Both the position numbers and the translations under genes were made by a program. From positions 1 to 41,190 of the IMG/VR virus record IMGVR_UViG_3300017655_000277: a DNA stretch of 41,190 nucleotides. One strand, 5' to 3'. The stretch is from a virus (Duplodnaviria; Caudoviricetes). Below, in pieces: positions 1,624 to 40,250 of the stretch (within the stretch, counting starts at the first letter, position 1; each line of letters opens with the position of its first letter). The notes beneath the pieces are model-generated. The model was given only the letters and a program-made list of their open reading frames with translations, was not told the DNA's origin and ran no database searches.

Positions 1624-1664
1624 ATTTCAAATGTAAGCAAAAGGGAAAGTAATCCAAGGGACAC
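1624..1664 (-). promoter_or_regulatory. Putative late promoter copy 1
   Basis: Minus strand reads GTGTCCCTT-N20-TACATTTG-AAAT-ATG(1623). Confidence 0.75.
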
Positions 1665-4600
1665 TAGGCATCCACGCCATTCGTAATCCGTCCCACCCGC
1701 TCATTCGCATCCTGCAACGCCCGGTAAGAAATCACCACCGGCCTACCCTCCGCATCCTGCACAACATCCACCAGCTGGCCAACTACATTCTCCAACCCAC
1801 GCAAATCCACGTTTGGAGCGGCCACATTCACCACCGGTGCCTCCACCCGCGCGGCTACCGATCCGCCATTGCGCACCGCCCTGTCCGCATCAATCAAATC
1901 AGGGTTCAACCTTATCGCCGCGCCATCACGGCGCATGCTGCTATACAGCAGCTCATCTACAATCTCGCGATTATTACGATAAGTTTCCCTGCTCAGTATC
2001 GGCTCACCACCCTCAATATTTCCGATAATACGCCTCCGTCGCCTATCCCACAGATCAATGCCCCCTTGCGCGTGGCTGCTACCATCCGGCACCATACCAC
2101 CCTTGCCAAATGTTGGCGGCTTCTGCGCCGATATAATAGCCACCTGCGCCGCGCCCGCCGCCGCCGCGATACCCATCTGTATCCAGTTCGGTATCGACTT
2201 AGCCACCCCCAGCGCAGTAGCAATAATAGCCTGGGCAATGTCCGCTTTTTTCTGTGCCTGCCAGGCCCTTCTTTTTTCCGCCTTTTCCAGCTTATCATAC
2301 TTATCGTTGATAGCTTTTTTCTGAGTTTCGGTTAGGCTTTTATTACTAAGCTCCGCCTCGCGCTCTTTTCGCAACTGCTCCAGCTTGGCATCACTTTCGG
2401 CCTTTCGGTTGTTTCCGGAAATCTGAAAAACAGCATCGCTAATGATTTCCGCGCCCCGTACCGCCAGTTCAATCTTCTTTTCCAGTTCCTCCTCATCCAG
2501 CGCCTTCACCGCGTCGCGCCGTCCCTGATCAATCGCCGCCAGTGCATCCTGAAACTCCTGGCTTAGTTGCAACTCCTGGTTATACTTTTTGCGAAGCGCC
2601 TCCACCTCCGCATCATACTTCGCGTTAATATCTGCCAGCCGCTTTTCATAGCCACTCATGCCACCCCGCAGATACTCCGCCTCCAGCCGTTCCTTTTCGC
2701 GCTTCAACCGCTCCGCCTCGCGTATCTCCGCATCCGTGATATCCCGTGCCCGCGCCTTATTCAAATCCTCCACCACCTCCGCATTCTCACGGTTTTCGTC
2801 TACCAGCTTATCGTAAAAAGCATTTATCCGAGCTTTCTCTTTATCCAGCTCACTAGCATGCTTATTCGCCAGCCCCACCCGCAGCGATTCGATTTTAGCC
2901 AAGTACTCTTTTTCCTGCCGTACTTTAATCGCATCGCTCGCAGTCTTTTGGTTCACCTCCAGCTCACCGATCTTTTTTTCTATCTCAGCTCGCTGCTCAT
3001 CAGTAACACCCTCCTGCTTCAGAAAATCCCTGTGCTGGTCAATCAGCTTTTGGTACTTCGCATTACTCTCCTCTACCTCGCGCTTACTTTTTCCCATCAG
3101 ATCCAGCAACCGCGCAGCGTCCAGCGCCCCAAAATCGTTCAGCAATTTTTCGTAGTCTTTTTTCGCCTTTTCCCGTTTTCGCTCAGCATCCTTTTCAGCC
3201 TTCTCCTGCTCTTTGGTTTTCCCGCCACCACCAGTACCGCCTGGCGCATCGCCACCGTTCATTGCGTCCAACCTTGCGGTAAGCTGAGCAATGCCCGCCT
3301 CCGCTTCCATATAAGCCTGGCTACCCGCATCCGCATTTTTTCGCGCTTCCGTCAGCTCCTCTATCCGCTTGGTAATCTTTTCCACGCTATCCAGCGCCCC
3401 CTGCGAATACTTGCCTTCAATCTGCCTGAACACACCCAGCGTATCCTCACCCAGCATGCCCATCTGCGTGTCCAGCGCTCGGATATCGTTTACCACATCC
3501 TCCAGCTCCGCCCGTTTCGCCTTCAACTCCTCATTAGTCATATCCCGCGTCACCAGCTGGCCACCGCTACGATCATAGGCAGATAAGCCCTGAAACTCCG
3601 TAACCTTCCTTTCATTCAAAACAGACTCAATCCGCTCTTTGCGCCGCTTCAATTCCGCTTGGTGATCCTTCGCCTCAGCAATCGCCTTTTCATTAATAAA
3701 GCGCAGGTAATTCCGGTGCTCTTCCACGTTGCCGCGCAAAATGTCCGTATTCATCGCCAGCGCGTTCCCATACGCATCCACCTGGCTTATCGCAATCGGG
3801 TATTCTTCAGAAAGTTTAACGATGATCTTATGCAATTCCTGGTGTTCCGCCTCCGTGAGCTCCCCTTTAGCCGTAAGCTCCTCATATCGATCAATCAGCG
3901 GCACCAAATCCCTATCCATCGCCCGCATTTCACTGCGAGCATTCTCATACTCACCGATAGCTTTCTCCACTGCGCTACGGTTATCCACCAGCGCCCCCGT
4001 CAAATCCGTAAACCACTGCCGCAGCCCACTATGCTCCCATAGCTGCGCCAGCCGGTTCTGTATTTTTTCCAAGTTCGCCGCGAGCGTCGTGTTCATGTTG
4101 TTGAACTCCGCCATGATAGACGTGTTTTCATCAAACGCCTCCGCGCCTTCCTGCACCCGCCTCCGCAGCAAGTCCGTGCGTTCCGCCAGCGCCCCCAGCG
4201 CCGCCACACCACGCGCGCCGCTCACCTCCATTACCCCCATGTTTTTCGCCAGCGCAGCCACGCCGCCCCCAGCCGTTTTAGAACCCTCCAGCACCCGCGT
4301 AAACGCCTCCATCGCATCCTCACGCAGCAGCTTGGAAAAATCCGCAACGCTCATCCCCGCTATCTTCGCATATTTCGGCACATCCTTACCCAGCTGGAGG
4401 ATAAACTGGCCAATAGCCGTACTACTACTTTCCATGCTTTGCCCCAGCTCATCCGCCGTCGCCGCAAGCCCCAGCACGGCCGGTAGCGATATCCCCGCGG
4501 CTGGAGCAATACCCGCCATCCGCTGCGCAAAGTCCACCAAGTTCTTTTCAGCCGCCGTACCACTCGCGCCCAGCGTATTGATCGCACTACCCACGCGCAT

Positions 4601-5266
4601 CAAAGATTCCTCGATGCCAAACCGATCCTTTAGCTTAAAAATATCCGTCAGCTTTCCCAAGCTGTTGATACTTTCTTCCACGCCGCCAAGGTCCTCACCC
4701 AGTGCCACGCCTATGCGGTCCGCCGCCCGCACAAAGCCCTCCACATCACGCTCCGCAGTTATCCCCAGCTTACCCGCCACCTGTGCTAAGTTCATCAGCT
4801 GCGTATTCGCCGTGCGCGAATCGAATTTTTTAAAACGCTCATTCAGCCGGTCCACCGCATCCCCCGTCAGGCCAGTTGTTTTCATCACCCCGCCCATAAT
4901 GTCGCTCAGCTCCGCGTTTTTGGTTATGAAGCCCGTCACACCTTTCACCAATAAGTCAAATCCCCGCTGGTACATATTACCAGCGAAAACACCCTTGGCG
5001 ATATCCTGCATGGAAGATTTAAAAGTTTTGGCAGCGGTAGCGTTGCCATTCAACGCCCGTCGAGATTCGTCAAGCGCCTGTTTAAGTTTTTCAACCTGTT
5101 TGGTTTTCTCCGCGTAGAGTCGAGGGTTGTCCTCTTCGCGCATATTTTTAAGCTCAGCGCGTACCTTCCGCCAGCTATCTTCAATTTCCTTTGCCGATGC
5201 CTTAGCCTGCTGGCCATTAATCACCAGCTTCAGCACACTTTCTGTGTCCGTCCGAGTCTTCGCCAT
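1664..5266 (-). CDS. Tail tape measure protein, 1200 aa
   Basis: TP901-like N-terminal core (VMKTTGLT...LAQVAGKLG...LVDFAQRMAG), long Glu/Lys/Ala helical region, and C-terminal FGKGG...SHAQGG...EGGEPIL motif typical of tape measure ends. Confidence 0.93.
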   Translation of the reverse strand: MAKTRTDTESVLKLVINGQQAKASAKEIEDSWRKVRAELKNMREEDNPRLYAEKTKQVEKLKQALDESRRALNGNATAAKTFKSSMQDIAKGVFAGNMYQRGFDLLVKGVTGFITKNAELSDIMGGVMKTTGLTGDAVDRLNERFKKFDSRTANTQLMNLAQVAGKLGITAERDVEGFVRAADRIGVALGEDLGGVEESINSLGKLTDIFKLKDRFGIEESLMRVGSAINTLGASGTAAEKNLVDFAQRMAGIAPAAGISLPAVLGLAATADELGQSMESSSTAIGQFILQLGKDVPKYAKIAGMSVADFSKLLREDAMEAFTRVLEGSKTAGGGVAALAKNMGVMEVSGARGVAALGALAERTDLLRRRVQEGAEAFDENTSIMAEFNNMNTTLAANLEKIQNRLAQLWEHSGLRQWFTDLTGALVDNRSAVEKAIGEYENARSEMRAMDRDLVPLIDRYEELTAKGELTEAEHQELHKIIVKLSEEYPIAISQVDAYGNALAMNTDILRGNVEEHRNYLRFINEKAIAEAKDHQAELKRRKERIESVLNERKVTEFQGLSAYDRSGGQLVTRDMTNEELKAKRAELEDVVNDIRALDTQMGMLGEDTLGVFRQIEGKYSQGALDSVEKITKRIEELTEARKNADAGSQAYMEAEAGIAQLTARLDAMNGGDAPGGTGGGGKTKEQEKAEKDAERKREKAKKDYEKLLNDFGALDAARLLDLMGKSKREVEESNAKYQKLIDQHRDFLKQEGVTDEQRAEIEKKIGELEVNQKTASDAIKVRQEKEYLAKIESLRVGLANKHASELDKEKARINAFYDKLVDENRENAEVVEDLNKARARDITDAEIREAERLKREKERLEAEYLRGGMSGYEKRLADINAKYDAEVEALRKKYNQELQLSQEFQDALAAIDQGRRDAVKALDEEELEKKIELAVRGAEIISDAVFQISGNNRKAESDAKLEQLRKEREAELSNKSLTETQKKAINDKYDKLEKAEKRRAWQAQKKADIAQAIIATALGVAKSIPNWIQMGIAAAAGAAQVAIISAQKPPTFGKGGMVPDGSSHAQGGIDLWDRRRRRIIGNIEGGEPILSRETYRNNREIVDELLYSSMRRDGAAIRLNPDLIDADRAVRNGGSVAARVEAPVVNVAAPNVDLRGLENVVGQLVDVVQDAEGRPVVISYRALQDANERVGRITNGVDA

Positions 5267-5307
5267 CCAACAAAAAGACGTACAAAAGCCGCCCCCGGAA
5301 AGGACAC
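5267..5307 (-). promoter_or_regulatory. Putative late promoter copy 2
   Basis: Minus strand reads GTGTCCTTT-N20-TCTTTTTG-TTGG-ATG(5266). Confidence 0.75.
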
Positions 5308-5312
5308 CAGCG

Positions 5313-5771
5313 CTACACCCGCACCGTTACATCACCGCCCGTTTCCTGTGCTATCCAGCCCGTTATCTCCTCGCCCAGGTCACGCGCCAGCAGCTCCCCC
5401 AGCCGTAGCGTCTCCGCCCATTTCGTTTTGCTGTACCACCGCTTGGCCATCCGGCGCGAGTAGGGGACATCCGCCCCGTAGCGCTTCGCTGCAATCAAGT
5501 TCGCCTTGTTTGTCGCCCGTTCCCAAGCCTTCATTCCCCGGCCCACGCCCATATCGCGGAAACGGCCATACATCAAAAATTTCAGCAGCACCCCCTTCAC
5601 ATCGCCGCCACCGGCCACCAGCTGCTTTTTAAAAGAGTTGTAAAGCTGCCTGGTCACCCCGATACGCTTTTTCTCGATCGATTTCTGAAACTCCACGATC
5701 GCAATCCGCGCCCACCCATCCACCGTATCACGGCGCACCAGCTTCGTCACGTCATACTTACGATCCATCAT
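5313..5771 (-). CDS. Putative neck / tail-completion (virion morphogenesis) protein
   Basis: 152 aa basic protein with TRQLYNSF and YGRFRDMGVGRG segments reminiscent of HK97 gp10 / Mu G-like neck proteins; ATGA-coupled to the upstream tail gene. Confidence 0.55.
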   Translation of the reverse strand: MMDRKYDVTKLVRRDTVDGWARIAIVEFQKSIEKKRIGVTRQLYNSFKKQLVAGGGDVKGVLLKFLMYGRFRDMGVGRGMKAWERATNKANLIAAKRYGADVPYSRRMAKRWYSKTKWAETLRLGELLARDLGEEITGWIAQETGGDVTVRV

Positions 5772-7837: not shown

Positions 7838-7939
7838 TTAACCAAAAAGCCACCAAGCCGTAGCCACCAGCAAAGCCAGATATCCCCAAAAAACAAGGCC
7901 CCGCAGGTTCAGCCTGTACCGGTACCGCCCGAAGATCAT
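7838..7939 (-). CDS. Small membrane peptide, 33 aa (not in the ORF track)
   Basis: Hand translation MIFGRYRYRLNLRGLVFWGYLALLVATAWWLFG*. The start overlaps the upstream stop (ATGA) and the ORF fills the gap to 6 nt before the next ATG. Confidence 0.65.
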   Translation of the reverse strand: MIFGRYRYRLNLRGLVFWGYLALLVATAWWLFG

Positions 7940-8166
7940 TTTTCACTCAGCTCAGTATCCGTAGTCGTAGCCTTAGCCAGTAGCGTAGCCACAAAACCCG
8001 CCGTAGCCAGGTAGCTCGCCACATCCCGAAGAAACTGCGGGATAGCAATATCATCCGGCGCACCAATGATGCCCGCACTCACAATGGTCAACATACCGCC
8101 GTAAAAAGCCAGTTTATTCCAAAATTTCGGCGTTTCGCTCGCCAGGCGTTTCCAAATTGTTTTCAT
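7936..8166 (-). CDS. Holin-like small membrane protein, 76 aa
   Basis: Basic N-terminus (WKRLASETPKFW), two hydrophobic helices and a charged C-tail; class II holin-like topology. Confidence 0.6.
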   Translation of the reverse strand: MKTIWKRLASETPKFWNKLAFYGGMLTIVSAGIIGAPDDIAIPQFLRDVASYLATAGFVATLLAKATTTDTELSEK

Positions 8167-8179
8167 GATTATCTGATTT

Positions 8180-11100
8180 TTATTTTATTACTCTCACCGA
8201 AAACTTCACATTCGGCACCCCCGTTACGTTGGTGGTGTACGGATTGTGAATGGTAATGGTAATGGTGCCGCTGGTCAACACCTTTGCCGAGGCTATCAAT
8301 TGCGTCGGCCCGTCATGATTCACCACTACCACGTCGCTGGTAATTACCCCACTCACGGCGTAATTTTGGCTTAAAAGCGAATTAGCCGGCAGGGACGAAT
8401 CGGTTATTGCCATAGCCAAACTGTCAACTCTTATGATATTATCCTGCACGGCAGTGTTCATCTGCGCCATCGTCACAAACTCATCATTTGCAGTCGCATT
8501 AACGCCTTTCACCGGGCTAGTGAAGGTCTTTGTGCCGGTTATCGTAGCGTTGCCTGAAATCGGTACCGCTGACACATCCGCAGCCGTTAGCGTTACGTTC
8601 GCTGATAATGCCTTGCCATTTATTTGCCGGGTATTCGGTACTGCGTTCACAATCCTTGAATCATTACCCTGCGCAACTGTGCCAGCAGCTGTACCGAAAT
8701 TCTTGTTAAAGGCTGTGTTCTTGCTGAAAGCGGCTTCTTTACTGTTTAACTGTGTCTGAATGTTCGATGTGGCTCCGCTCAGGTAGGCTAGTTCTGTGGT
8801 GGTGGTGGCGCTCACCACAACCTTGCCCGATGCATTGCTACCTAAAGCTCTACCAGCGGTAAGATCACTGCTGGCAATAGTGGAAGCCGCTCCTGTGATG
8901 GTTGTTTGGTAATTCGCTGGATTGAAATTCCTGGTCGTAAAGACCATGTACCAGTCGGACCATGTACCAGTTGAGCGCGAACGCAGCCATATATCTTCTG
9001 TGTTCGCTCTATAAGGCCATACTACTTGTGTAGTGTTATCTCCTATATACTGTAAATTCTGTAAGTGCCAATAGGTACCAGTAGTTGGTTTATTAGCCCA
9101 CCCTTGCCCGGTTAGATTCTTGTAAAAACCCGGCGAAACAAAATCGTTAAAGTCTAAATTAGGTTGATTGCCACCTGTAGTCGCAGTGGCCTGATATAAA
9201 CTTCCTCTCGCGGGTATACCTTGTTCGCCATCAATGTAGTATCTACCATCTAGGCTAGTTGTCCAGTTGCCGCCAGTTTGCCGTAGTAATACAAGGTTTC
9301 CGTTGGCTGCATTAAAAGATACATCTGTCAATGACCTACTGTAAGCTGTATTCCAAGTGCCGATATCTCCAGTCGTAGGAATTAGATACCCACTAGCAGT
9401 TGCTACAGTGAATGAGGTGTTACCAGTTTGATTAGCTGTAAATGATGCTGTCCCCGTAAGACCGGTTCCTGTGTTTAGCGATAAAGTACCATTACCTATA
9501 GATGGCATAGCTGTACGGCCTAATACCCCACCTGCATCGGCAGTGACCAATTGAATTCCCGGACCAGTCAAGGTGCCTATGGTAGTGTTGGTGGATGAAA
9601 AGATAGACCTGTTAACGGCGTTAGTTCTGCCATTCGGGTATATGTAGACTACTCCGTTGTTAGATGGTGATGATAGCACAGTAGAACCCGAAGCAGCGGC
9701 CACTATTGTTGAACCTCCAATCAAATATCCTGCTGTACCGCTTTCAGGTACGTTTACACCGCCTTCATTAAGTTCTAGTTGAACGCCATTATTTTGGTAA
9801 CCTCTTATAAGGAATGATTGAGTGGCCGAAGTTCTTTGCCCGCCTCTAATGAATGCGCCATTTCCATTCGAGAACCCTATGTCAACGACACCACCAGTAA
9901 CTATAGATAAGTCACTTGTCGGTTGCCATCTGTGATTTGATACCCATTGTTTAACTCCTGCTATTGCTGATTGATTGCCTGTAGTATTCACATAATCAGT
10001 GGGTATGGTAGGTATCTGTGAGCTTACCCAGTCTCTATCGGCCAATGTTATCCAACCCGACCATGTATTAATCCCTGTGCCAAAATTTACACGTAATGTG
10101 TGGTCGCTTAATGTTCCGCTCTTCCAAAGCATCCAAGACTGCCGAAAGTCCGCTGTGCCTAAGCGATTAAATAATATGCCAGTTCCTACTTCGAGTGGGT
10201 ACCCCGTAGACCCTGTTGTGTTAGAAAATGGCCACAACCCTGCACCTACAGTAGCTGGCCAGCCTTCAACTATATCATCGATCACAGTCGCTCTGCCCAA
10301 TGACGATAGCGATACGCTGTTACCATTGCTGATAGATATTTGGCCGCTCGACGAACCTAAATATAGAGTCTGAGCCGAGGGTATTTGCGAGCCGACATAG
10401 GTAGCGACTGCTTGGGTGGTCGGGAACAATGTATTATTCAGCGTGCCGAAAGAAGTGGCTTTATTGGATGAACTTTCTTTTCCGTCCAACGCCGATTGCA
10501 ACCCAGTAACCTTGCTTATTGGCAAAGTCGGGATGTCACCAGCTGCTAACGAAGCTCCCCCAGTCGCGCGGCCATAGGCATCAAAGGTGGGTTTGGTATA
10601 TGCTCCGGGCGTAATTCCGCTAGGTGCTAAATCAAGCGTCCACTCCCTGTTTTGCGTGATGTCCTGCGCCCCGCCGCTAGCCACTATGCGTCCCGCTGTG
10701 CCGCTCACCGTCAGCGTGCGCGATGCAAGCGCCCGCGCGTTGATCTGTCCCTGCGCCTTGCCCAGTGCCTGCACAATGTTATCGGTGCTTACCATCACAC
10801 TGTTGGTGGCCGCATAGCCGGTTATAGGCGTGGCCCGCACCCGGGGCTGCGTGAAGTATTGATTGGTGCCTTCTGTTACCTGCGTGGTGGAGTAGTCGCC
10901 TACCTCGGCCGTTACACCGCCATCACGGCCAAACACGGATGTCACAACGCCGCCCGTCCCGCTGCCGGGTACGCTGTTGTAGGTAATCGTATTCGTGGCC
11001 GGGTTGAAGCTTACCGAAGCGTCGCCGGTCGCAGCAAAGCGAATCTTTTCATTGTTCCCTATCGGGAACTGCGTGGTGCCGCCAGCATTTGCAATGTCGA

Positions 11101-11731
11101 TGCTCACTTCATCCAGTTGTTTCTTGCCCACGTTCCCGCTGCCGTCAACCACTAGGAAATCCGTAGCGCTGGCCATTGTAGCCAACGATGGTAGTTGAAG
11201 TTCCGTCACTTCCGCCGCCTCGGCTATCAGATCGGCGACCGTTAGGGTGTTGTCCGTTTCATCGTCAACATCCTTGCGCAGGAAGCGGTTATTTAGATAT
11301 GTGTCGTTAAGCCCAATGCTCACACTGCCGCTGGCCAGCGATCCGCCTACGTCCAGCCCGCCCGAGTTAGTGATCGTTGCCGTCTTATCGACCTTTCCGG
11401 CCAATAACACATCAGCCGCAGCCTTCGTATAAAAGTCATCTAGTGCACTAGCATCCGCTTTCAACGCCAAAAAAGCATTAATCTGCGACTGTGTGTAAAA
11501 ATCAGCAAGGGCGGCTGCATCGGCTTTCAACGCCAGCAACGAATCCACATTATGCCAGCTGCCCAAGTTTATGTATGGCCCGCGGCCCGTCCATATGTTG
11601 CCCTGCAAATCTTTGAAAAGTTGATTACCGTATGGCAGCGCCCCACTCGGCAGATTAGGCTGTGTCTGCGCTGCACTGGTAAGCGCACAAACGACAAAAA
11701 ACAACGTTAATAACCGTCTCATTTCTCTCAT
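8180..11731 (-). CDS. Tail fibre-like protein, 1183 aa, with N-terminal signal peptide and two knob-like domains
   Basis: Fibre motifs VTSVFGRDG, GAYTKPTFDAYGR, ISKVTGLQSALDGK, GTAAGTVAQGNDSR and RQINGKALSANVTL; pyocin-knob-like segments ending TWSGW and TWSDW; N-terminus MRRLLTLFFVVCALTSAA|Q. Confidence 0.85.
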   Translation of the reverse strand: MREMRRLLTLFFVVCALTSAAQTQPNLPSGALPYGNQLFKDLQGNIWTGRGPYINLGSWHNVDSLLALKADAAALADFYTQSQINAFLALKADASALDDFYTKAAADVLLAGKVDKTATITNSGGLDVGGSLASGSVSIGLNDTYLNNRFLRKDVDDETDNTLTVADLIAEAAEVTELQLPSLATMASATDFLVVDGSGNVGKKQLDEVSIDIANAGGTTQFPIGNNEKIRFAATGDASVSFNPATNTITYNSVPGSGTGGVVTSVFGRDGGVTAEVGDYSTTQVTEGTNQYFTQPRVRATPITGYAATNSVMVSTDNIVQALGKAQGQINARALASRTLTVSGTAGRIVASGGAQDITQNREWTLDLAPSGITPGAYTKPTFDAYGRATGGASLAAGDIPTLPISKVTGLQSALDGKESSSNKATSFGTLNNTLFPTTQAVATYVGSQIPSAQTLYLGSSSGQISISNGNSVSLSSLGRATVIDDIVEGWPATVGAGLWPFSNTTGSTGYPLEVGTGILFNRLGTADFRQSWMLWKSGTLSDHTLRVNFGTGINTWSGWITLADRDWVSSQIPTIPTDYVNTTGNQSAIAGVKQWVSNHRWQPTSDLSIVTGGVVDIGFSNGNGAFIRGGQRTSATQSFLIRGYQNNGVQLELNEGGVNVPESGTAGYLIGGSTIVAAASGSTVLSSPSNNGVVYIYPNGRTNAVNRSIFSSTNTTIGTLTGPGIQLVTADAGGVLGRTAMPSIGNGTLSLNTGTGLTGTASFTANQTGNTSFTVATASGYLIPTTGDIGTWNTAYSRSLTDVSFNAANGNLVLLRQTGGNWTTSLDGRYYIDGEQGIPARGSLYQATATTGGNQPNLDFNDFVSPGFYKNLTGQGWANKPTTGTYWHLQNLQYIGDNTTQVVWPYRANTEDIWLRSRSTGTWSDWYMVFTTRNFNPANYQTTITGAASTIASSDLTAGRALGSNASGKVVVSATTTTELAYLSGATSNIQTQLNSKEAAFSKNTAFNKNFGTAAGTVAQGNDSRIVNAVPNTRQINGKALSANVTLTAADVSAVPISGNATITGTKTFTSPVKGVNATANDEFVTMAQMNTAVQDNIIRVDSLAMAITDSSLPANSLLSQNYAVSGVITSDVVVVNHDGPTQLIASAKVLTSGTITITIHNPYTTNVTGVPNVKFSVRVIK
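11384..11540 (-). repeat. Tandem 22-aa repeat in the fibre N-terminal shaft
   Basis: LALKADAAALADFYTQSQINAF / LALKADASALDDFYTKAAADVL; DNA GCTTTCAACGCCA recurs 66 bp apart (11457, 11523). Confidence 0.8.
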
Positions 11732-13905
11732 CTTACTATTTTATCAAAACCACTTTGCATCCATTCATCCGCCGCCACTTTCTCCCAGCGCTGATAGCTG
11801 CTCTCACTATACAGTACATCACCTATCCGGGCATTAGCAAAAGCTGCTGACAATTCGGTGAATACGGCCCCATACCCCAAGGTATCATCCCGCCTGTACA
11901 CCGCTCCATCCAGCACACGCTCCCAATCTGCACCAGCCTCGCCCGGCTCACTTACGTTATCCTCCGCCGTACTTTTCCAAAGCACACCATTATGCACCAC
12001 GAAAATTCCCGCGCTGTATACCTCGCTATCTTCTTCATCAGGTTCCGGCAGTACCCAGTCGCCTCGAAAAGTCCACGTGGTATCCAGCTGCTCATACACA
12101 AATCCTTCAGTCACGTACTGGTCGTGCGTATGGTTAAGTGGCGCTTTACCATTAATCGCAATCTGCTTAGCCGCCAAATCCGCGTTCGTCGCCGCCGCAT
12201 AGGCAACGAGCGCATTCTGTACCGCCGCTACCTTAGCATCAATCTCCGCGCGATTGTAGGTTTCCGTTTTCAGATAATACCTATCATCAAAATTTTCCGG
12301 ATCAGAGGGTGGGGGAGGGATATACCCGCTCAGATCAGGCGTGTAAGCATACTCATCGGTTTCCTCATCCGCCGTAAAAAGCTCTTCACTGTACCGGCTA
12401 CCCACCTCAAAAGCCAGGGCAAACAGGTTGTTGCCATCTTGAAACTCATTGATGTTTTTGCTCACCAGCGTAATAGGGTAGAAGCGTCCATTTTTGTACG
12501 CAAACTTTTCCGTACTCAAAAAGAAATCCCTGAAGCCCCGCAGCTGCCGCCTGGTCATGTAGCCCGTGTTCACCTCTTCACTATCCGTCAGCCGCACATC
12601 AAAATCAATGCTATCGCCATCTGTCAACACAAAATCAGCCATCCGCGTCAGCGTAGCCCGCTGCTGCACCACCTCATAGCCCTTGCTTTTTCGGCCATAT
12701 ACATACACCCCTTCATACCCCCCGAAACTGTTTTCATACACAAAGAATCGTGTGTAGGGCTCATACCGGTAGTTGATGGTAAACCGCATCACCTCCGTGC
12801 GCACACCCCCAGCGTCTTCCAGCCACACCTCATAAGTCGCGGGCACCTTTTCAGCATCCTGCAAGTGCACCCCCAGCTGCTTCATGCCCGCGGGTATCAT
12901 CACCCGCATAAATTCCGGTACCGCGGCAAACGTATCGGCCGTATAGGTCACGTCCGTATTGTCAGAAAAAAGCACCTTCACCCGCACGTCCAAATCCACA
13001 AGCTGCCCGCCCGAAAAATTCACCGCATACAAGTAGTCGGGCTGGTCGGGTTTCACCACGCGGTAGCCGCCGCTTTGGTCCATCCACTTCAATTTTCCGG
13101 CAGATACAAACCAACCCGGAAAAGAGCGCTCTGCCAGCATCCCCTTGCTGAAGCCGCCATATACACCCCACTTCACAGCCGTGTCCGTTATTATGCCCAC
13201 CCGTTGCGGTTGCCCCAGCATCTCGGCGTACCGCACAAAAAAGCGACGGACGGTGCGGCCGCTGGTCTCAAACACCGGCAAAGAAAGGTTAGGCCGATCA
13301 TGTCCATCCGCCAGCAGTGCCGTTGTTAGCGCTTCCGAAACATCCCACACCACGTGCCCGTTATCGTCCGGCTCCAATACCGCCTGCACAAACAGCTCAT
13401 ACCCGCCGTCCAAGCCCATCACATACAGCTCCGCCAGCACCTTCAAGTTGGCCGTAAACAAGGCAGGCACGCCGCTCTGCTGCCAACCCATTGTTATTCC
13501 TACGCCATCTAACAGCGTCACATCATACGCATCACTATTTACCCGCGCACTAAGCGCTATTGTATTATCAGAAACGGCCGTAAGCTCAAAATCCCGGTTC
13601 AAGTAATAATTGCGGCTCAACGCCGCCAACACTTTATCACGCCATTCCGCCATCGTCTCAACGCCATCCCATGCAGGTAACCGCAAGCCGCTGCCATCAA
13701 TGACATCCACAAAAACAAAAAAAAGCGTTGTCCCCCCATACTCCAACCTCATCACCACACCATCCGTTCGCGGACTGGAAAACACCAAATGCCCTACAAA
13801 CGGCCTACCCTCGTTCGCATAGCGCCTATCCGTATGGAAGCCGAAAACAACCGGATTACGGCTGAAAACCGCCGCCCCGGGCTCACGTGTAAGGGTTATC
13901 GCCAT
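11728..13905 (-). CDS. Tail structural protein, 725 aa, with C-terminal fibre-like and CBM5/12-like segments
   Basis: FSRNPVVF N-terminus and FVYENSFGGYE motif seen in Bacteroidota phage tail proteins; YNRAEIDAK and HTH shaft motifs; YSAGIFVVHNGVLWKS...PG....W segment. Confidence 0.7.
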   Translation of the reverse strand: MAITLTREPGAAVFSRNPVVFGFHTDRRYANEGRPFVGHLVFSSPRTDGVVMRLEYGGTTLFFVFVDVIDGSGLRLPAWDGVETMAEWRDKVLAALSRNYYLNRDFELTAVSDNTIALSARVNSDAYDVTLLDGVGITMGWQQSGVPALFTANLKVLAELYVMGLDGGYELFVQAVLEPDDNGHVVWDVSEALTTALLADGHDRPNLSLPVFETSGRTVRRFFVRYAEMLGQPQRVGIITDTAVKWGVYGGFSKGMLAERSFPGWFVSAGKLKWMDQSGGYRVVKPDQPDYLYAVNFSGGQLVDLDVRVKVLFSDNTDVTYTADTFAAVPEFMRVMIPAGMKQLGVHLQDAEKVPATYEVWLEDAGGVRTEVMRFTINYRYEPYTRFFVYENSFGGYEGVYVYGRKSKGYEVVQQRATLTRMADFVLTDGDSIDFDVRLTDSEEVNTGYMTRRQLRGFRDFFLSTEKFAYKNGRFYPITLVSKNINEFQDGNNLFALAFEVGSRYSEELFTADEETDEYAYTPDLSGYIPPPPSDPENFDDRYYLKTETYNRAEIDAKVAAVQNALVAYAAATNADLAAKQIAINGKAPLNHTHDQYVTEGFVYEQLDTTWTFRGDWVLPEPDEEDSEVYSAGIFVVHNGVLWKSTAEDNVSEPGEAGADWERVLDGAVYRRDDTLGYGAVFTELSAAFANARIGDVLYSESSYQRWEKVAADEWMQSGFDKIVR

Positions 13906-16299: not shown

Positions 16300-16971
16300 T
16301 CACGCAACCGTTCGCAAGGCCGCACTTTCAAAAACATCAGCAATCGCCGCTATCAAACGCGCTTGGTCAAGTCCATTCACTACCTGCCTCGCATTCACGA
16401 AGTCCCGTAAGCCACCCGCCACATAATCCGATAGACGGTGCATGCCCCGTGTAAACCATCCTTCCAAGCAACCCACAACCAAAATTTTGCTCGATACCAA
16501 CTCATCCAACGCCAAATCAGGATCAGCCAGTAAGTCCACACCCGTTTTTTCACTTGCAAACACGTAGTTGTTGCGCCCCGTGATATGCACATCACCACGG
16601 CCACGGTAGTTCCACCCGTCATCCGTGCCCGGTCGATTTCCGAGCCTTCCGTTATACACAAAGTTTGCAAGTCCGCGCGGGTTGCGCACGTACGGCGCCG
16701 CGCTAGCCAGCGTCGGGAAACGGCTCGGCCACACCTCCCTAATCCGCATCGCACTCGTATAGTTCAGGTTTTCATAATTCGGCTGCATCGCCTTATTCGT
16801 CTCGTGATATGAAGTTGCCAGCAAGTACGCCAATTGCGAAAAACCGCCGCTGGGTAACCGCTCCACATAATAGCGGTCTATTATACGATCAATCCCAACT
16901 TTTTGGGCTTGCAGTATCCGGCCATTGAATAGGTTTAGTCGTAGATGATCCCAAAAAATATCCGGTCTCAT
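16300..16971 (-). CDS. Endolysin, glycoside hydrolase family 19 (chitinase-like)
   Basis: QLAYLLATSYHET, ENLNY, YRGRGDVHITGRNNY and ARQVVNG motifs. Confidence 0.9.
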   Translation of the reverse strand: MRPDIFWDHLRLNLFNGRILQAQKVGIDRIIDRYYVERLPSGGFSQLAYLLATSYHETNKAMQPNYENLNYTSAMRIREVWPSRFPTLASAAPYVRNPRGLANFVYNGRLGNRPGTDDGWNYRGRGDVHITGRNNYVFASEKTGVDLLADPDLALDELVSSKILVVGCLEGWFTRGMHRLSDYVAGGLRDFVNARQVVNGLDQARLIAAIADVFESAALRTVA

Positions 16972-18389: not shown

Positions 18390-19739
18390 TCAGTTAGTTG
18401 TTTCTTTAGCCGTCTTATGAGATTTATCCAGCGTTTCCAGCTCAATCTCCACCATCCGAAAGCACAGCCCGGGGTGTTTTGCCTTCCAGCCGTTATACTC
18501 CGCAATGAAATCCAGCGGCTCCAGTATCACATCACGGTATGGTTGCTGTAAAGCGACGTAGATATTGAAAGCCACACGCTTATCAGAGCCACTACCGCCG
18601 CCCATCTTCTTACCGGGACCATCGCCCACCAACGTCGGGTCAACCCCCAGCGCGCGCATCAGATGCTCACTGGCCTCGCGGCTATCTTCCAAGTGTTCCC
18701 CTGATAACTCATGCCGCTCAATTTTCTCAATCTTCCATTCCGGCAAATCATTGCCCGCCCGATCCTTCCCAAATTCCGTCAAGATTGTTTTACCGGCATT
18801 TTCCTCACCCGTCAACGTCTTGTTAATGTGCGCCAGCTTTTCTTGCTTTTTCTCCTTTTGCTCCTGAGGTGATAGTTTATCCCAATCCTTGTAAGTAGCT
18901 GGCCAATAAGCAATCGGGATTGATAGTTTGTACAGCGCTGAAAACACGCGCTTCATTTGGTTTTCTTTTGATTTAGGAATTTTACGGGCCACGCTCTCCC
19001 ATCCGCTCACCAAATAGCCGTTCCACTTTGCCAGCTGATAATACACCTTGCCCGGCGATGGATACGACACTGGGTAAATAAACGTAGTCGCCTGGCTCTT
19101 CCTAACCAAATCAATACGCTCATTACTGTAGGGATCAATAACCGGCAGTTTTACCGTTTCCTTATCATCCGGCCTCGCATCCGGCCAGTTCGCATTGATG
19201 TAGCACTTATCTACGATCCCCTTGTTGTTTTGCTTCCCCCACCGGCAAAAGCTCGCATCCTGCGTGCCCAGGTAAGCAATCTTATCGCCGCCTTTCGCTT
19301 TAATCAGCTCCGGGAAAACGTTCCAAAACCAAAAGAAATCTGTGGGGGCCTCGCGCATATAGCGCTTAAATGCGATATCGCTTAAAAAGTTGGTGATCTC
19401 CTCATCTTCCACGTACTCATACTCCAGCTTGCGCGTTTCCGGATTCCACTTCTTGATGAACGGAAGTACCTCGCGTCCCTGAAGTGCCCGCGCCATCCAG
19501 TCCAGCAATGAAGGTAGTTCCGTGCTACGCTCATTCGCTTCGATAATCAACTGCGGGAAATCGTTATCCTCTCCCCAACGCGCTATCTCTTCGCTCGATT
19601 GCTGTTTTTTCTTCGGGCTCACCGGTTGCTTTTTCAACGGATCGAGATTGACCGGCGTACCCATTTCCACCAGTATCTCCCCGCCAGCTATCAGCGCCAA
19701 ATCATCCGTTACAAACTCAACCCCGTTGTTTTTTGCCAT
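18390..19739 (-). CDS. Portal protein, 449 aa
   Basis: WGEDNDFPQ, YYQLAKW, LTGEENAGK, ALGVDPTLVG and GSGSDKRVAF motifs typical of Bacteroidota phage portals. Confidence 0.88.
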   Translation of the reverse strand: MAKNNGVEFVTDDLALIAGGEILVEMGTPVNLDPLKKQPVSPKKKQQSSEEIARWGEDNDFPQLIIEANERSTELPSLLDWMARALQGREVLPFIKKWNPETRKLEYEYVEDEEITNFLSDIAFKRYMREAPTDFFWFWNVFPELIKAKGGDKIAYLGTQDASFCRWGKQNNKGIVDKCYINANWPDARPDDKETVKLPVIDPYSNERIDLVRKSQATTFIYPVSYPSPGKVYYQLAKWNGYLVSGWESVARKIPKSKENQMKRVFSALYKLSIPIAYWPATYKDWDKLSPQEQKEKKQEKLAHINKTLTGEENAGKTILTEFGKDRAGNDLPEWKIEKIERHELSGEHLEDSREASEHLMRALGVDPTLVGDGPGKKMGGGSGSDKRVAFNIYVALQQPYRDVILEPLDFIAEYNGWKAKHPGLCFRMVEIELETLDKSHKTAKETTN

Positions 19740-20044
19740 TATTGTGCTACCCTCATTCCGTTGAATCGCGTTACCAGCAACGCGTGAATCTTTATAATCC
19801 GGTCGCTGTCTGCATGCCGGATGTTCCTGGTATAATTTCCGTAGTGCTGCGGATCACGACTACCGCGCTTGTTTTTCGAACTGGGACCGCCAAGCAGTAC
19901 TGCGCGATCGAGCGTAATTTTCTTACCACCAGTCCCCAGCTTTTCGTCGCAGGTCACGAACGTGATCGAGAAAGGAATCAGCTCACCATCCGCGCCACGC
20001 ATGGCCATCGTATTGAGCATATCTTTCACCTTAATGATCTCCAT
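19739..20044 (-). CDS. Small conserved phage protein upstream of the portal (start revised to MEIIKV)
   Basis: ATG lies 4 nt after the late-promoter motif; PFSITFVT...PQH..NYTRNI...FNG pattern. Confidence 0.7.
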   Translation of the reverse strand: MEIIKVKDMLNTMAMRGADGELIPFSITFVTCDEKLGTGGKKITLDRAVLLGGPSSKNKRGSRDPQHYGNYTRNIRHADSDRIIKIHALLVTRFNGMRVAQ

Positions 20045-23310: not shown

Positions 23311-23937
23311 ATGTTTAACTTTTACTTTGACTCTTCATCTAGTGAATTATTATTGCAATTAATTACCACAATTGCATCTTTTCTCACGATGGTAATTGCT
23401 GCTATCGCTCTTTTTGCGTGGAAACAACAAAAAAAGTATGACCTAGTAATAGACGCAAAGGCAAAAGCCGGTTCTGTTATTGAATATATAGCATTTATTA
23501 GGGGGCCTTTCAATAATTACCATTTAGTTGAGTTAGAATCATTTTTCCAGAAAGCTATAGACGAAAAAAATAATGGGCAAAAAAACACATTAAATTATGT
23601 AATTAAAAACTATAAAAGGTTTGATAATTTTTACATTGAAATAGTCGATATAAGTGAAAGACTGAAGTCGTCATTTGGAAAAAAAAACCCATTAGTAAAG
23701 TTCTATTCATTTGCCGTAACGGCTGGTAAAAATATCGAGCAGCTAAAATCTATTAGGGAATCCTACTTCGAATTTTCAGCCGAAAGTGGACATTCCGAGC
23801 AAACTATTAAAGAAGTTGTATCAGGGCTTGATGCTCAAATTTTTGCAACCCCTAATGAGCCTGACGATATAAATGACAATCTTCGAGAATTATTCTCCCA
23901 CGTAGAGAACTTTAGATTGAAGTGGTATCATATTTAA
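23311..23937 (+). CDS. AT-rich moron: N-terminally membrane-anchored protein, 208 aa
   Basis: Opposite strand to its neighbours and visibly low GC; TM helix LITTIASFLTMVIAAIALFAWKQQ; own TATATTTG box at 23280-23287. Confidence 0.8.
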   Translation: MFNFYFDSSSSELLLQLITTIASFLTMVIAAIALFAWKQQKKYDLVIDAKAKAGSVIEYIAFIRGPFNNYHLVELESFFQKAIDEKNNGQKNTLNYVIKNYKRFDNFYIEIVDISERLKSSFGKKNPLVKFYSFAVTAGKNIEQLKSIRESYFEFSAESGHSEQTIKEVVSGLDAQIFATPNEPDDINDNLRELFSHVENFRLKWYHI

Positions 23938-25165: not shown

Positions 25166-26407
25166 TTAACTCATGTCGTTGGTCGAAATCACTTCCGGGT
25201 CCTGCACACCGAAACCCAGCACACCAGTCAAACCGAAGTCGATCGTGTACATCTTTTCGATAGGCCGCCATTTTTCGTAATCGCCCAGCAAGTCGGTCGC
25301 AGCAATCAGATTTTCCTTCGGCGTACAAACCAGCTGCTGGCTCCCACTCATCCACGTTACCGGCTTAAGGATGCAATTGCCATTGGACGTAGGCAATGTG
25401 ACCAACTTCAAATCCTTATCGGTATACTTCGAGATATCGCCCTCGAAATCATCAAGCAACGCCTCAAAAGAAGACAAAGAGCTATACATAAAGCATTTCC
25501 TGTTTGCGCGCACTACTTCGGGAACGCCCCGGTACACAGCTTTGAACTTTGAATACGCATCAGTGGCCAACGATCCCGTTGTAACCACTTTACCCAATGC
25601 ATCAGCTGTACGCAGCGTGCGGATTTTAGTCCCCAAACCCTCACAGATAGCCAGCACATCCACGTTGAGCCATTTTGCTGGGTGGGTAGCGGGCGACTGC
25701 CCCGCTGTCGTTTCGTCCAACGCACGGAAATAGTGATCTTTCTTACCCGTATTGAAGCGAACCAAATCGCCTACGTCGTAAGTAGAAGCCGGATTAAACG
25801 CGCTGAATGCCGCGCGACCTACACCATTCCAAACGGTTTGGTTATTGATTGCTGAGGCATTCTCATCAGCCACCGTTTCCAGTGTAAATTGTGCGTACGG
25901 AATCCGAGTGTTAGTAGCGCCTTCACCAGGGCCACGATCTTCCGCGAGATAGATCGTACGGTATTTTTTCGGTTCAATCGTAATATCCCGCTGCCAATCA
26001 TCAACCTCCAGCACCTGCCCGCTCAATTTGATGTCGTTAGGGTTCGACTCCTCAATACCTGAGTACGGCATCGGGCCACCACTAACGGTTAGCTTATGCA
26101 GGTTCACCTTGTTTTTAACGTTAAACATGGGTGTGATATCGTTGAATACCTGTATGCCAGTTACAAAACGCCTATACAATCCCTTCGCGTATTTACCTGC
26201 ATATGCAGCCAGCGCCGAAATATCCGGCGATGCCTCTGCACGGAGCACACCCGCGTTCCCTCGAGGCACCAGCCCCCCAATTAAAAACACAGCAAAAAGC
26301 ACCCCCAGCAAAGCAGGTTTACCCACCGCATTCGCCACAAAGAGCGATAAAAGAGCCGTCAGCAACAAGCCGACCGCCAACCCCAATCCTTTCGAAAAAT
26401 TTTTCAT
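25166..26407 (-). CDS. Major capsid protein (putative), with hydrophobic N-terminal leader and CBM-like insertion
   Basis: Directly follows the Clp protease/scaffold gene; size fits; HK97-type order of elements is inferred (TVWNG...EGLGTKI...TPKENL...GFGV). Confidence 0.75.
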   Translation of the reverse strand: MKNFSKGLGLAVGLLLTALLSLFVANAVGKPALLGVLFAVFLIGGLVPRGNAGVLRAEASPDISALAAYAGKYAKGLYRRFVTGIQVFNDITPMFNVKNKVNLHKLTVSGGPMPYSGIEESNPNDIKLSGQVLEVDDWQRDITIEPKKYRTIYLAEDRGPGEGATNTRIPYAQFTLETVADENASAINNQTVWNGVGRAAFSAFNPASTYDVGDLVRFNTGKKDHYFRALDETTAGQSPATHPAKWLNVDVLAICEGLGTKIRTLRTADALGKVVTTGSLATDAYSKFKAVYRGVPEVVRANRKCFMYSSLSSFEALLDDFEGDISKYTDKDLKLVTLPTSNGNCILKPVTWMSGSQQLVCTPKENLIAATDLLGDYEKWRPIEKMYTIDFGLTGVLGFGVQDPEVISTNDMS

Positions 26408-31454: not shown

Positions 31455-32288
31455 TTAGTTATTAAAAAGTGTCAATTGTTCCTTATGCTCGTAGTTCATC
31501 CAAATACATTCCTGCACCAGGCCACTACGTATATTATTCCGTTTCGAGGGGAAAGCCACCATTTCCCAATCACCATACAGCTCGCGCATCAGTCCGCAGT
31601 CATAAGATGAAATCATCACCATCCCAGTAGCCGCCCGTGCCACCGTCGCCAAGTCAATGTGATCATTATCTGTAAAGTCAAACCGGTAATCATTTTTGCT
31701 GGCCCGGCTCTCCACTGGGTACGGCGGATCCAGGTAAAAGAAAGCTTCGGCAAAATCCAGTAACGGAATCAACTCACGAAAACACCTATTTTCAATCTGC
31801 AAGCTCATCAGCCTATCCGATATCTCAATCAGTTTAGGTATACTATTCCACCACAGCGAAACCACTTCTCCCCCCCATACATCCGTTTTCGCTTTCGATA
31901 GCCGCCATCCCTTATTTTTCTGTTGGCCACCCATGCTAAACATACTTTGCCGTACACGCACGTAAAAACGCCGTGCCCGCTCAACCGGTTCGTCCACATC
32001 ACCCCAGCACTCATTATATTCCTGCCGCGATATCGGTGTAAGCAAAAGCTGTGTGATCAGCTCACGCGGATAATCGCGCAGCACCCGGAAAAAATTCACT
32101 ACATCGCCATTGATGTCGTTATATGTATTAATCCGGCTCAGCGGTTTATTCAGCGTAACGGCCATCGAGCCACCAAACACGTCGATAAAATGCACATGCT
32201 TCGGAAAGTACTTATACAGCCAGTCAGTCCAGGTAAGTTTTCCCCCGAAGTAGTTGAAAGCAATCAGTTTGCTTGAATCGTGTGACAT
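31455..32288 (-). CDS. DNA adenine methyltransferase (Dam/D12 family, alpha class)
   Basis: NYFGGK, DVFGGS, NDIN and YLDPPY motifs in alpha order. Confidence 0.92.
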   Translation of the reverse strand: MSHDSSKLIAFNYFGGKLTWTDWLYKYFPKHVHFIDVFGGSMAVTLNKPLSRINTYNDINGDVVNFFRVLRDYPRELITQLLLTPISRQEYNECWGDVDEPVERARRFYVRVRQSMFSMGGQQKNKGWRLSKAKTDVWGGEVVSLWWNSIPKLIEISDRLMSLQIENRCFRELIPLLDFAEAFFYLDPPYPVESRASKNDYRFDFTDNDHIDLATVARAATGMVMISSYDCGLMRELYGDWEMVAFPSKRNNIRSGLVQECIWMNYEHKEQLTLFNN

Positions 32289-33368
32289 TTAACCAACCCT
32301 ATTAAATTGAAACAAACCCTGACTAGACGCCACCCGATTAGTAGAAATATCTCCATACGCCGGATTGAGTTCAATGATAATCCAGTATCTACCCAGTTTA
32401 TCAGACACAACGGCGGTAGTACCAGCGCCCCCGAATGGATCAATCACTACCCCCCCCTGCGGACTACCAGCCTTTATGCAATCCACTATCAGCTTTTCCG
32501 GAAAAGTCGCAAAATGGGCCTCATGGAACTGGGCGGGCGATACCGTCCATACAGACCGCTTATTCCGCATCCCCGGTCCCTGCTCGCGCTTGGTCATGTG
32601 ATCCCATCTAGCATTAAAACCCTCATGCCGTCTCGAATGGCCCCGCTGTTTGTCGTTGTGTTTTCCGTTAAATTTAGACGCATCTTTAAATCCAGCTCTG
32701 ATACCGTTTCGCAGCTCATCCGGCACGCTTTTGTTGCTGTTTGCCACGCGCGCCTTTCTCGCCGCGGTACCGGTACCATCCACATCGTACACAGCCAGCT
32801 CTTTGATGGCTTCATGGTCATAGTAGTACTTCGGTTGCTTCGAAAGCATAAATATGTATTCATGACTTTTTGTACAGCGGTCGGTAACCGATTCGGGCAT
32901 GCAATTTGGTTTGCTCCAAATAATATCTTGGCGCAGATACCACCCATCCGCCCGCAAAGCAAAAGCCAGCATCCAGGGTATGCCAATTAGATCCTTTTGC
33001 TTCAAGCCCGGCCCCATCTTTTTAGGCTGATTCTTACAAGCAATTTGGTTACCCTTACCACCCATCAAGCCCGATTTTCTGCATGCCTGTTCATCTGTCC
33101 GCTTCTTAGCGGCCGATGCATAACTATCCCCAATATTCACCCACAACGTGCCATCATCACGTAGTACACGCCGCACTTCACGAAAAACCGTCACCAGCTT
33201 ATCAATATACTCTTCCGGCGTAGCCTCCATACCTATTTGGCAGGCCACTCCATAATCACGTAAGCCATAGTATGGCGGCGACGTTACGCATGTGTGCGCA
33301 ATACCGTCGGGCAATTCCTTTAGCCTCGCCAAAGCATCGCCGATCAATATTTTATTAAGTTCACTCAT
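32289..33368 (-). CDS. DNA methyltransferase (N4-C/N6-A family, beta class)
   Basis: VTSPPY before HFATFP...DPFGGAGTT; SPPY suggests N4-cytosine. Confidence 0.92.
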   Translation of the reverse strand: MSELNKILIGDALARLKELPDGIAHTCVTSPPYYGLRDYGVACQIGMEATPEEYIDKLVTVFREVRRVLRDDGTLWVNIGDSYASAAKKRTDEQACRKSGLMGGKGNQIACKNQPKKMGPGLKQKDLIGIPWMLAFALRADGWYLRQDIIWSKPNCMPESVTDRCTKSHEYIFMLSKQPKYYYDHEAIKELAVYDVDGTGTAARKARVANSNKSVPDELRNGIRAGFKDASKFNGKHNDKQRGHSRRHEGFNARWDHMTKREQGPGMRNKRSVWTVSPAQFHEAHFATFPEKLIVDCIKAGSPQGGVVIDPFGGAGTTAVVSDKLGRYWIIIELNPAYGDISTNRVASSQGLFQFNRVG

Positions 33369-33372
33369 GATA

Positions 33373-34227
33373 TTATTCAGTTAATAGATTTCTCAAACTC
33401 CAGCCACTTTTAAACGTCGCCTTCCCTTCATCTTCCATCTCGATCATTTGTCCCAGCAGCTCCGGGTTGTGTTTCGCTCCACATTGCAGATCACCAATAC
33501 ACGCCAGCACACAAAACATGCAGCTCACCCGCTCGTTTCCGAAAACATACGCAGGATGGAACGGCCACCAGTCAGGCACGAGGCCATTCTGCTGGTAAAA
33601 TGCCCTAGCAAACATCAAATCCGCCGACGTCATACCATACGTGGCCCACACCTGGTCAATTGAGTAATCAAATACCGGATACCAGTTTATCGTTAGCCGC
33701 TTGTCGGGGCGATAATTCCGTAGGGCTTCCGCTACCGTCATTCTTTTGTAAAACTCGCTAGTTTTACTTCCTCTAATGCTAAGTGGCTGCTTCTTTGCAC
33801 GGGCTTTTGATTCCTGGGCACGTATACCCTCGGCAGATATAACAAGGTTCCCACAAGTAGTAAAGAAAACGTTTGATGGTCCACGCTTCAAATCGCTAGT
33901 GCAATAGCGGCTTTTTGCACTACTCCAAAACGGTTTGCCAGTATCCTTCAATAGTAACAAACGGCGGTACCAATAAGCCAGTAGATCCAGCCCGTCCTTA
34001 CGTTTCAAAATATGCAACGGCAACGTAAACTCTTTCGCTTGCTTCCGGCACATATCAATACTTTGTGGCCACTCTACGCGTCCAAGGTCGCAATGTATCA
34101 TCGAGGTAATTGGATACCCGTTTGTAGCCAGCATTTTCGTCATAGCTTGGCCATCCTTGCCACCCGACACACTGCAATGAATTTCAGCGCCTAGGGATAT
34201 AGCTTTATCAATCAATAGATTTTCCAT
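33373..34227 (-). CDS. Phosphoadenosine phosphosulfate (PAPS) reductase family protein
   Basis: PP-loop SVSGGKDG, RYCTSDLK, GIRAQES and HPAY..GNERVSCMFC. Confidence 0.88.
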   Translation of the reverse strand: MENLLIDKAISLGAEIHCSVSGGKDGQAMTKMLATNGYPITSMIHCDLGRVEWPQSIDMCRKQAKEFTLPLHILKRKDGLDLLAYWYRRLLLLKDTGKPFWSSAKSRYCTSDLKRGPSNVFFTTCGNLVISAEGIRAQESKARAKKQPLSIRGSKTSEFYKRMTVAEALRNYRPDKRLTINWYPVFDYSIDQVWATYGMTSADLMFARAFYQQNGLVPDWWPFHPAYVFGNERVSCMFCVLACIGDLQCGAKHNPELLGQMIEMEDEGKATFKSGWSLRNLLTE

Positions 34228-39839: not shown

Positions 39840-40250
39840 ATGAAAGAACCGATTGGCGAGATTATACGCGAAAGCGTTAAACGATCCGGACTCACGCAAG
39901 AAGAGTTCGCAAAGGAGATGGGAATGACACTTAGGAATTTAGCCAACCTATTCAACAAACAGCGCCTTCCGATTGAGCAAGTTGTTAGGGCTTCTAAGAT
40001 ACTGAAAGAGGATTTCATAGAACGTTACACGGACATTCTTTACGACGAGGACCCCGGATTATCCGCCATTAGGCAGGCACCGGTACTTCGAGAACCCGCG
40101 TCAGGATATGAAGCCACAGTTCATAAAGAGCCGATACTCACTTTTTCATTAAACATCAAAGGTGAAGCTGGGAAGATTTCAGAAAAATTCCCTGAACTAT
40201 TAAACGTAATTAAATCAGAAACCGAAGCCAGGGGGCTTCAACTCGGATAA
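39840..40250 (+). CDS. cI-like XRE-family repressor lacking an obvious S24 peptidase domain
   Basis: IGEIIRE...GLTQEEFAKEMGMTLRNLANLF HTH; only 136 aa. Confidence 0.8.
   Translation: MKEPIGEIIRESVKRSGLTQEEFAKEMGMTLRNLANLFNKQRLPIEQVVRASKILKEDFIERYTDILYDEDPGLSAIRQAPVLREPASGYEATVHKEPILTFSLNIKGEAGKISEKFPELLNVIKSETEARGLQLG

Follow-up and report, generated by a model that had tools for sequence, protein, structure and literature searches.

A prophage tail fibre with a conserved Sec-type leader, a candidate for export and for docking on the tail at lysis

The prophage and its fibre gene

The DNA analysed here (the window, the whole 41,190-nucleotide stretch of IMG/VR virus record IMGVR_UViG_3300017655_000277) is a nearly complete temperate prophage that encodes an integrase (1-1206), a tape measure protein (1664-5266), an endolysin (16300-16971), a DUF6712 adaptor, a portal protein, a terminase, a Clp-type head protease and, judged by its sequence, a repressor-like gene near 39840. 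A 12-base direct repeat, at -65 and at 41930 in window coordinates, is the longest exact match between the two flanks, occurs in 4 copies in the genome and is a candidate for the attachment core. Distant relatives of the terminase are encoded by Polaribacter phage Leef, Flavobacterium 6H, Cellulophaga Ingeline and Porphyromonas prophages (about 23% identity to the Porphyromonas phage terminases), and the named relatives of the tail gene are found in Parapedobacter and Pedobacter records, so that the host is likely a Sphingobacteriaceae bacterium. The early region contains two methyltransferase-like genes and a PAPS-reductase-like gene (31455-34227, minus strand), which we take to be such from their motifs, and an exonuclease-plus-BRCT-like gene (40267-41190, plus strand) adjoins the repressor gene. 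A 208-aa gene on the opposite strand (23311-23937, plus strand), with a hydrophobic N-terminal stretch and no family match, is inserted in the late region, where its position is occupied by a different gene in the related locus L006.

The tail module includes, on the minus strand, a 725-aa leaderless tail protein (11728..13905), referred to below as the anchor, whose relatives in five prophages form one protein with a fibre, followed by an ORF of 1183 aa (8180-11731) and by a 76-aa membrane protein (7936..8166) that is holin-like by appearance only. The last of these has no match in family scans including NCBIfam, lies far from the endolysin gene and travels with the fibre gene, being near-identical in L006 (18580-18810) and in the unrelated prophage L035, as if moving with the fibre cassette. 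The 1183-aa ORF is named a tail fibre from its position, its mosaic likeness to annotated fibres and its predicted lectin-like tip. Its mosaic shaft is common to leaderless fibres and annotated phage fibres: pieces of it match annotated fibres of unrelated phages, and residues 116-946 share 34-41% identity over long stretches with four leaderless fibres. A gene that lies in the tail module and encodes a fibre-type shaft and tip has the features of a tailed-phage side fibre. Over its whole length the protein has no sequence match in Pfam, NCBIfam or the PDB, a PHROG search returned two marginal matches, and the Atlas matches, at or under 0.90, serve as leads only.

The C-terminal end of the fibre (8183..8440, minus strand) is predicted to fold into a six-strand sandwich that forms a lectin-like tip (model pLDDT 87). 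The structure closest to these last 86 residues is that of residues 488-575 of KP32gp38 (Z 8.0, rmsd 2.4, 81 residues aligned), and further matches are to discoidin (Z 7.9) and the LKA1 tailspike (Z 7.5), all of them middling Z values; a Foldseek search with the tip model returned nothing at E below 0.001. Relatives of the fibre combine a constant N-terminal domain with swapped tips, which among 52 scanned relatives include S74 (in 3) and GDSL (in 2) as well as pectate-lyase-like, GH28 and collagen modules. Assignment of the ORF as a T9SS cargo or a trimeric autotransporter was considered and rejected, as NCBIfam and Pfam give no sorting-domain or anchor match and the C-terminus is a predicted sandwich with no barrel.

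The leader and the mature N-terminal domain

The fibre ORF begins MREMRRLLTLFFVVCALTSAA|QTQP, with positions 11660-11731 (minus strand) encoding residues 1-24, MREMRRLLTLFFVVCALTSAAQTQ. The first-pass annotation had recognised here a classical Sec leader with Gln at +1, and this is confirmed: residues 1-21 (4-21 from the second ATG; 11669..11731, minus strand) form a Sec/SPase I-type leader with a basic n-region (R2, R5 and R6), a core in which residues 7-17 exceed every other 11-residue stretch of the fibre in hydrophobicity (Kyte-Doolittle mean 2.98), S-A-A at -3 to -1 and Q22 at +1. The n/h/c organisation and the small residues at -3 and -1 are those of Bacteroidota Sec/SPase I substrates according to a rule-based test of our own design. 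The fibre passes this test, whereas shuffling its first 50 residues 5000 times gave a single pass and 1103 internal windows gave none. Under the same rules, the fibre is the only one of 44 window ORFs tested that has a leader ending before Gln, a combination also present in 25 of 51 host ORFs picked with rough patterns as SusC-like or T9SS-like, and the strict form of the rule is passed by 254 of 3394 host ORFs. The fibre ATG overlaps the TGA of the anchor gene (ATGA); an alternative ATG at codon 4 keeps the complete leader, and the Met after that is residue 186. A Bacteroidota lipoprotein (SPase II) was rejected, as the sole Cys, C15, lies inside the core after Val and is mostly absent in relatives. 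The mature chain contains no cysteines, so export does not serve disulphide formation. The leader is real, is under selection and very probably functions as an export signal.

The leader is followed by a conserved mature N-terminal domain (Q22-V62; 11546..11668, minus strand), predicted to be a small beta domain and likely a docking module. The 12 matches to fibre residues 1-300 divide into proteins that share this domain and have leaders and 6 that share only the shaft and have none. With a profile built from the leader and the domain together, 175 clusters were obtained, and the 150 of these that were listed comprise 131 with full leaders, 9 with starts inside the leader and 10 unrelated repeat proteins, which were removed from the family set. 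In the 131 full leaders the -1 residue is always A, G or S and the +1 residue is Gln in 130, the full-leader and -1 counts being partly by construction since leaders were called with a rule that requires the core to be uncharged and the -1 residue to be small. As such a profile favours leader-bearing proteins, the search was repeated with the mature domain alone (7997 candidates scored): the domain stands immediately after A/G/S|Q in all 45 matches and is internal in none; the leader is complete in 40, and in the other 5 the called start lies within it. Homologues lacking the leader had been named beforehand as evidence that would speak against export; the opposite is seen, both in the 131 full leaders and in the 45 leader-blind matches, and no leaderless copy of the domain occurs among the matches found.

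Identity to the window is 25% across the leaders and 50% across the first 14 mature residues: the leader is conserved in its type rather than in its sequence. In 147 of the 149 relatives aligned, the residue right after the A/G/S site is Gln. Gln-first mature ends are described in PMC5837995 as a mark of Bacteroidota SPase I substrates, with cyclisation taking place on the periplasmic face. Gln at +1 is kept in relatives, and the host has a gene for a glutaminyl cyclase (PF05096, E 6e-87), both as for such a substrate. The N-terminal domain is present in 7 of 401 family genomes; neither cultured phages nor the viral contigs searched with a single N-terminal query gave a match.

Directly after the domain, D63-S64-L65 (11537..11545, minus strand) forms a Bacteroidota O-glycosylation sequon, D-(S/T)-(A/I/L/V/M/T) (as defined in the available text of PMC8550257 and PMC12871550), at which glycosylation is predicted; such glycosylation is restricted to non-cytoplasmic proteins, according to PMC12871550. 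Of 149 aligned relatives, 112 keep a sequon at this position; comparable aromatic-V/I-D motifs contain one in 4 of 80 cases further down the family proteins and in 1 of 13 cases from leaderless fibres. Over whole proteins sequons are not enriched, either in the window fibre (2 observed, the second at 1103, vs 5.4 expected) or in the family (352 vs 393 expected). Among leader-bearing phage proteins, 10 of the 16 examined have a sequon within the first 70 mature residues (4.8 expected, P 0.004); two of the 16 are from the fibre's family and the others are different, some of them mutually related. Among leaderless phage proteins the figure is 6 of 23 (4.5 expected). A sequon is absent from this early region in 4 of 7 Cellulophaga-type proteins tested, a set that includes phi10:1 gp091, gp094 and gp095 and phi18:3 gp087, with gp085-086 standing outside it. 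Because the conservation is that of one inherited column, in which the D-S pair could be structural rather than glycosylated, it may be taken as supporting and not as decisive.

These features bear on the alternative that the leader merely tethers the nascent fibre to the inner face of the membrane, or is bypassed by an internal start, with assembly in the cytoplasm and trimming by a phage protease. Such tethering or trimming is probably how the hydrophobic leader of the capsid protein works (judging from the accessible text of PMC10367356), in-frame TTG or GTG codons are present at fibre codons 42, 56 and 62, and leaderless relatives fold the same shaft without export. However, residues 22-60 are conserved, and part of this domain would be lost with an internal start; leaderless copies of the domain were not found among the matches, and the near-invariant Gln after the cleavage site and the conserved sequon would be meaningful only beyond the inner membrane. 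Purely cytoplasmic assembly is accordingly held to be highly improbable.

Neighbouring genes and the candidate docking site

Anchor-bearing prophages were counted at 29 loci, with duplicates and loci ending before the next gene left out. The anchor is directly followed by a gene with a leader and Gln at 7 loci, and such a gene stands one or two genes further on at 3, one of the three encoding only 118 aa; a leaderless gene follows at 8 loci (4 of them cut short by the locus end), the fibre is fused to the anchor at 5, and there is no fibre between the anchor and the hub gene at 6. As 19 of the 29 related prophages have no leader-bearing gene in the slot after the anchor, export is optional. 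A quick tree of the anchor implies no fewer than 4-5 changes in the leader trait, and a phylum-wide anchor search added 1 further genome among 400.

The N-terminal domain itself occurs at nine loci, two of them viral contigs, and at 8 of these its gene is part of the virion module and follows a leaderless gene that ends in one of two partner domains. These loci include three prophages with unrelated head and terminase genes, in which the gene bearing the domain is the last virion gene ahead of the lysis genes. The type 1 partner domain is present at 3 loci (the window, L006 and L035) and corresponds in the window to anchor residues about 669-725 (11731..11901, minus strand), a candidate fibre binding site; the type 2 domain is present at 5 (L022, L037, L039, L047 and L067). 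The upstream gene is little more than the partner domain in L035 (113 aa) and in L067, where it stands alone (95 aa). At the exception, L041, neither a partner nor an adjoining virion module was found in the 19.9 kb read. Profiles of the partner domains have no match at loci with leaderless or fused fibres, their positive matches being by construction since they were built from the same loci. The two types cannot be aligned with one another (HHalign probability 0.1), and the occurrence of one fibre domain after two unlike upstream domains would fit co-transfer as well as binding.

A 3:3 complex predicted for anchor residues 590-725 with fibre residues 22-118 scored 0.53, with the best of 3 controls at 0.00 (runs 0.28, 0.54 and 0.53; contact agreement at least 86%; partner pLDDT at least 80). 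Of 157 solved pairs 116 reach the mark used, as do 2 of 215 mismatched ones; because only 18 of these solved pairs, but both mismatches, score 0.60 or under, the prediction favours docking weakly. This weak score is compatible with a different fate, in which the fibre is a free protein that is exported late and released at lysis to act as a decoy, to loosen matrix or capsule or to guard against re-adsorption to debris; enzyme tips are found in many family members, and the six related prophages with no fibre between anchor and hub indicate that the slot is dispensable. Attachment, however, better suits a shaft of this length and an N-terminal domain that is conserved and goes together with an upstream domain; in five relatives the fibre is fused to the anchor at the same place, and two cultured phages have leader-bearing proteins with a structural annotation. 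Release as a free protein is held to be quite improbable.

A second hydrophobic leader is encoded in the window by the gene for the probable major capsid protein (25166..26407, minus strand), assigned from its position after the Clp-type head protease. This leader is double, with hydrophobic stretches at about residues 7-26 and 31-47, and is not followed by Gln after a cleavage site. The first-pass annotation had combined it with the fibre leader into one envelope-linked morphogenesis route, a proposal that is not supported, given the different build of the two leaders and their independent distribution. The capsid leader is common in the window's prophage family and absent from L061, L070, L071 and L072, yet L071 and L072 have leader-bearing genes after the anchor, and in L008 and L064 the capsid leader is present beside leaderless or fused fibres. 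This distribution does not support a single system joining the two, and the capsid leader is treated as a feature separate from that of the fibre. Capsid leaders of Porphyromonas prophages are already in print and are likely cut by the head protease, in the account given in the available text of PMC10367356.

Proposed role and comparison with known systems

Tailed phages are commonly regarded as assembled entirely in the cytoplasm, and their ordinary side fibres are made and attached there and are leaderless. Ordinary side fibres and tailspikes, including KP32gp38 with its matching tip (PDB 9qrm) and those of the sister prophages, share with the window fibre the same slot, shaft modules and a lectin-like tip. 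Export of the window fibre to the periplasm, as the first-pass annotation had suggested, is well supported by the conserved leader with Gln, the conserved sequon and the host glutaminyl cyclase. Between the two fates that it had offered, joining of the virion at lysis emerges as the better option, in view of the late operon, the partner domain and the precedents annotated from MS/MS, and a role as adhesin or receptor blocker as the less likely one. The preferred reading, which we hold to be reasonably probable, is that the side fibre is exported and becomes attached to the tail when the cell lyses.

According to this model, the fibre would likely leave the cytoplasm by the host Sec route, after which the leader would likely be cut before Gln22 and pyroglutamate would form. 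In the periplasm, Ser64 would likely be tagged with a sugar and the fibre would assemble into a trimer. Only once lysis opens the inner membrane would the fibre bind the leaderless upstream tail protein, presumably at the C-terminal domain of the anchor. Because the shaft needs no export (leaderless fibres share it, and it contains no cysteine), the purpose likely lies in the N-terminal module, either as a means of placing a host glycan at the fibre base or of keeping a sticky or glycan-cutting tip outside the cytoplasm until release. A more general proposal, of a portable two-gene cassette made up of a cytoplasmic adaptor and a Sec-exported fibre, with virion assembly in two compartments, processing in the host periplasm and attachment to the tail at lysis, is put forward tentatively, as somewhat more doubtful than not. 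Were it correct, particles would carry the glycan of their last host and attachment may depend on that glycan.

The plan of the fibre raises the possibility that it never enters the virion and instead serves the lysogen at its surface, as an adhesin or a receptor blocker displayed by way of the constant N-terminal domain. The mosaic adhesive trimer (MAT) fibres of Bdellovibrio, which are on the cell surface with no known anchor, have the same plan of signal peptide, constant N-terminal domain and mosaic trimeric shaft, and their tips are variable, with or without an S74 chaperone, as in the fibre's family (accessible text of PMC10769870). According to the same part of that source, MAT fibres are chromosomal and surface-exposed, with 21 paralogues and an N-domain of about 130 aa, whereas the window fibre is encoded by a phage late gene present once, has an N-domain of 40 aa and is preceded by a leaderless partner. 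A check for a MAT-type N-domain gave 0 matches in a PDB sequence search, and the fold search with the fibre N-terminal model was dominated by generic helix matches. The adhesin reading also accommodates the L041 copy, which stands apart from virion genes, and the GC3 of the fibre gene (0.49 vs 0.59-0.62 in its neighbours), which suits a mobile cassette. Genes that follow the Gln rule are described in Porphyromonas gingivalis prophages of the proposed Nixviridae, together with capsid leaders, where they are interpreted in the available text as genes of unknown function and possible modifiers of the outer membrane, and are not there called fibres, although the supplement may hold fibre-like genes among them (PMC10367356). 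Against an adhesin, the fibre start overlaps or abuts a tail gene of the late operon, with no terminator and no Bacteroidota-type promoter found between the anchor and fibre genes; T9SS or autotransporter signatures are found in 0 of the 38 fibres among 47 proteins scanned with NCBIfam; the predicted tip is a lectin-like sandwich with no barrel; the upstream partner domains have no leaders; and the N-terminal domain has 0 copies among host housekeeping genes in the 401 genomes searched. Display on the lysogen surface is therefore considered unlikely.

For the preferred reading, docking of an exported side fibre at lysis, the nearest precedents are late genes of Bacteroidota phages that likewise begin with a leader followed by Gln, namely gp091-gp094 of Cellulophaga phage phi10:1 (KC821618) and gp085-gp087 of phi18:3 (KC821620). 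GenBank notes describe these as 'structural protein, experimental MS/MS' and leave the leaders unremarked; MS/MS of purified phage can include co-purifying material. Unlike the fibre gene, they stand three or four in tandem, and their products have no homology to the fibre or partner domains. Leef_1 gp08 is leaderless.

Cleaved Sec leaders are present on the virion proteins pIII and pVIII of Inovirus, which are membrane-anchored and added during extrusion in filamentous, non-lytic phages. No description of an exported tailed-phage fibre was found in the literature searched, a search that left out subscription papers and leaves absence from print unproven; signal peptides are merely counted in the accessible text of PMC5723332, PMC13507307 and PMC4615864. 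The fibre family, the partner domain and the conserved sequon are new here. If the preferred reading is true, maturation of a host-recognition part across the inner membrane would constitute an assembly step coupled to lysis, with access to host glycosylation, and pipelines that file signal-peptide proteins as host or 'moron' genes would miss real receptor-binding proteins. For docking, the locus supplies one candidate pair of partners, and for glycosylation one candidate site.

Several further observations concern related genes. The type 2 partner domain is also found inside or at the end of the leader-bearing fibres P0034, P0023, P0033, P0037 and P0060, which suggests fibre chains or branches. 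Tail modules of other loci hold additional genes with a leader and Gln that are unrelated to the fibre's family (L068, 19374-20810, plus strand; L019, 8601-8927, plus strand; and L017), and a 179-aa protein of this kind is encoded beyond the window, after the exonuclease-plus-BRCT-like gene and inside the candidate prophage end. The same genome contains a second, distantly related tail-gene cluster (G000:C21, about 449000-455000; L030), in which an anchor-like gene is followed by a leaderless gene of 828 aa. In the viral contig L067, the capsid gene (4407-5537, plus strand) reads as two pieces. Finally, in the unrelated prophage L038 a leader-bearing protein is encoded immediately after the capsid gene (19421-19900, plus strand) and is a candidate exported head decoration.
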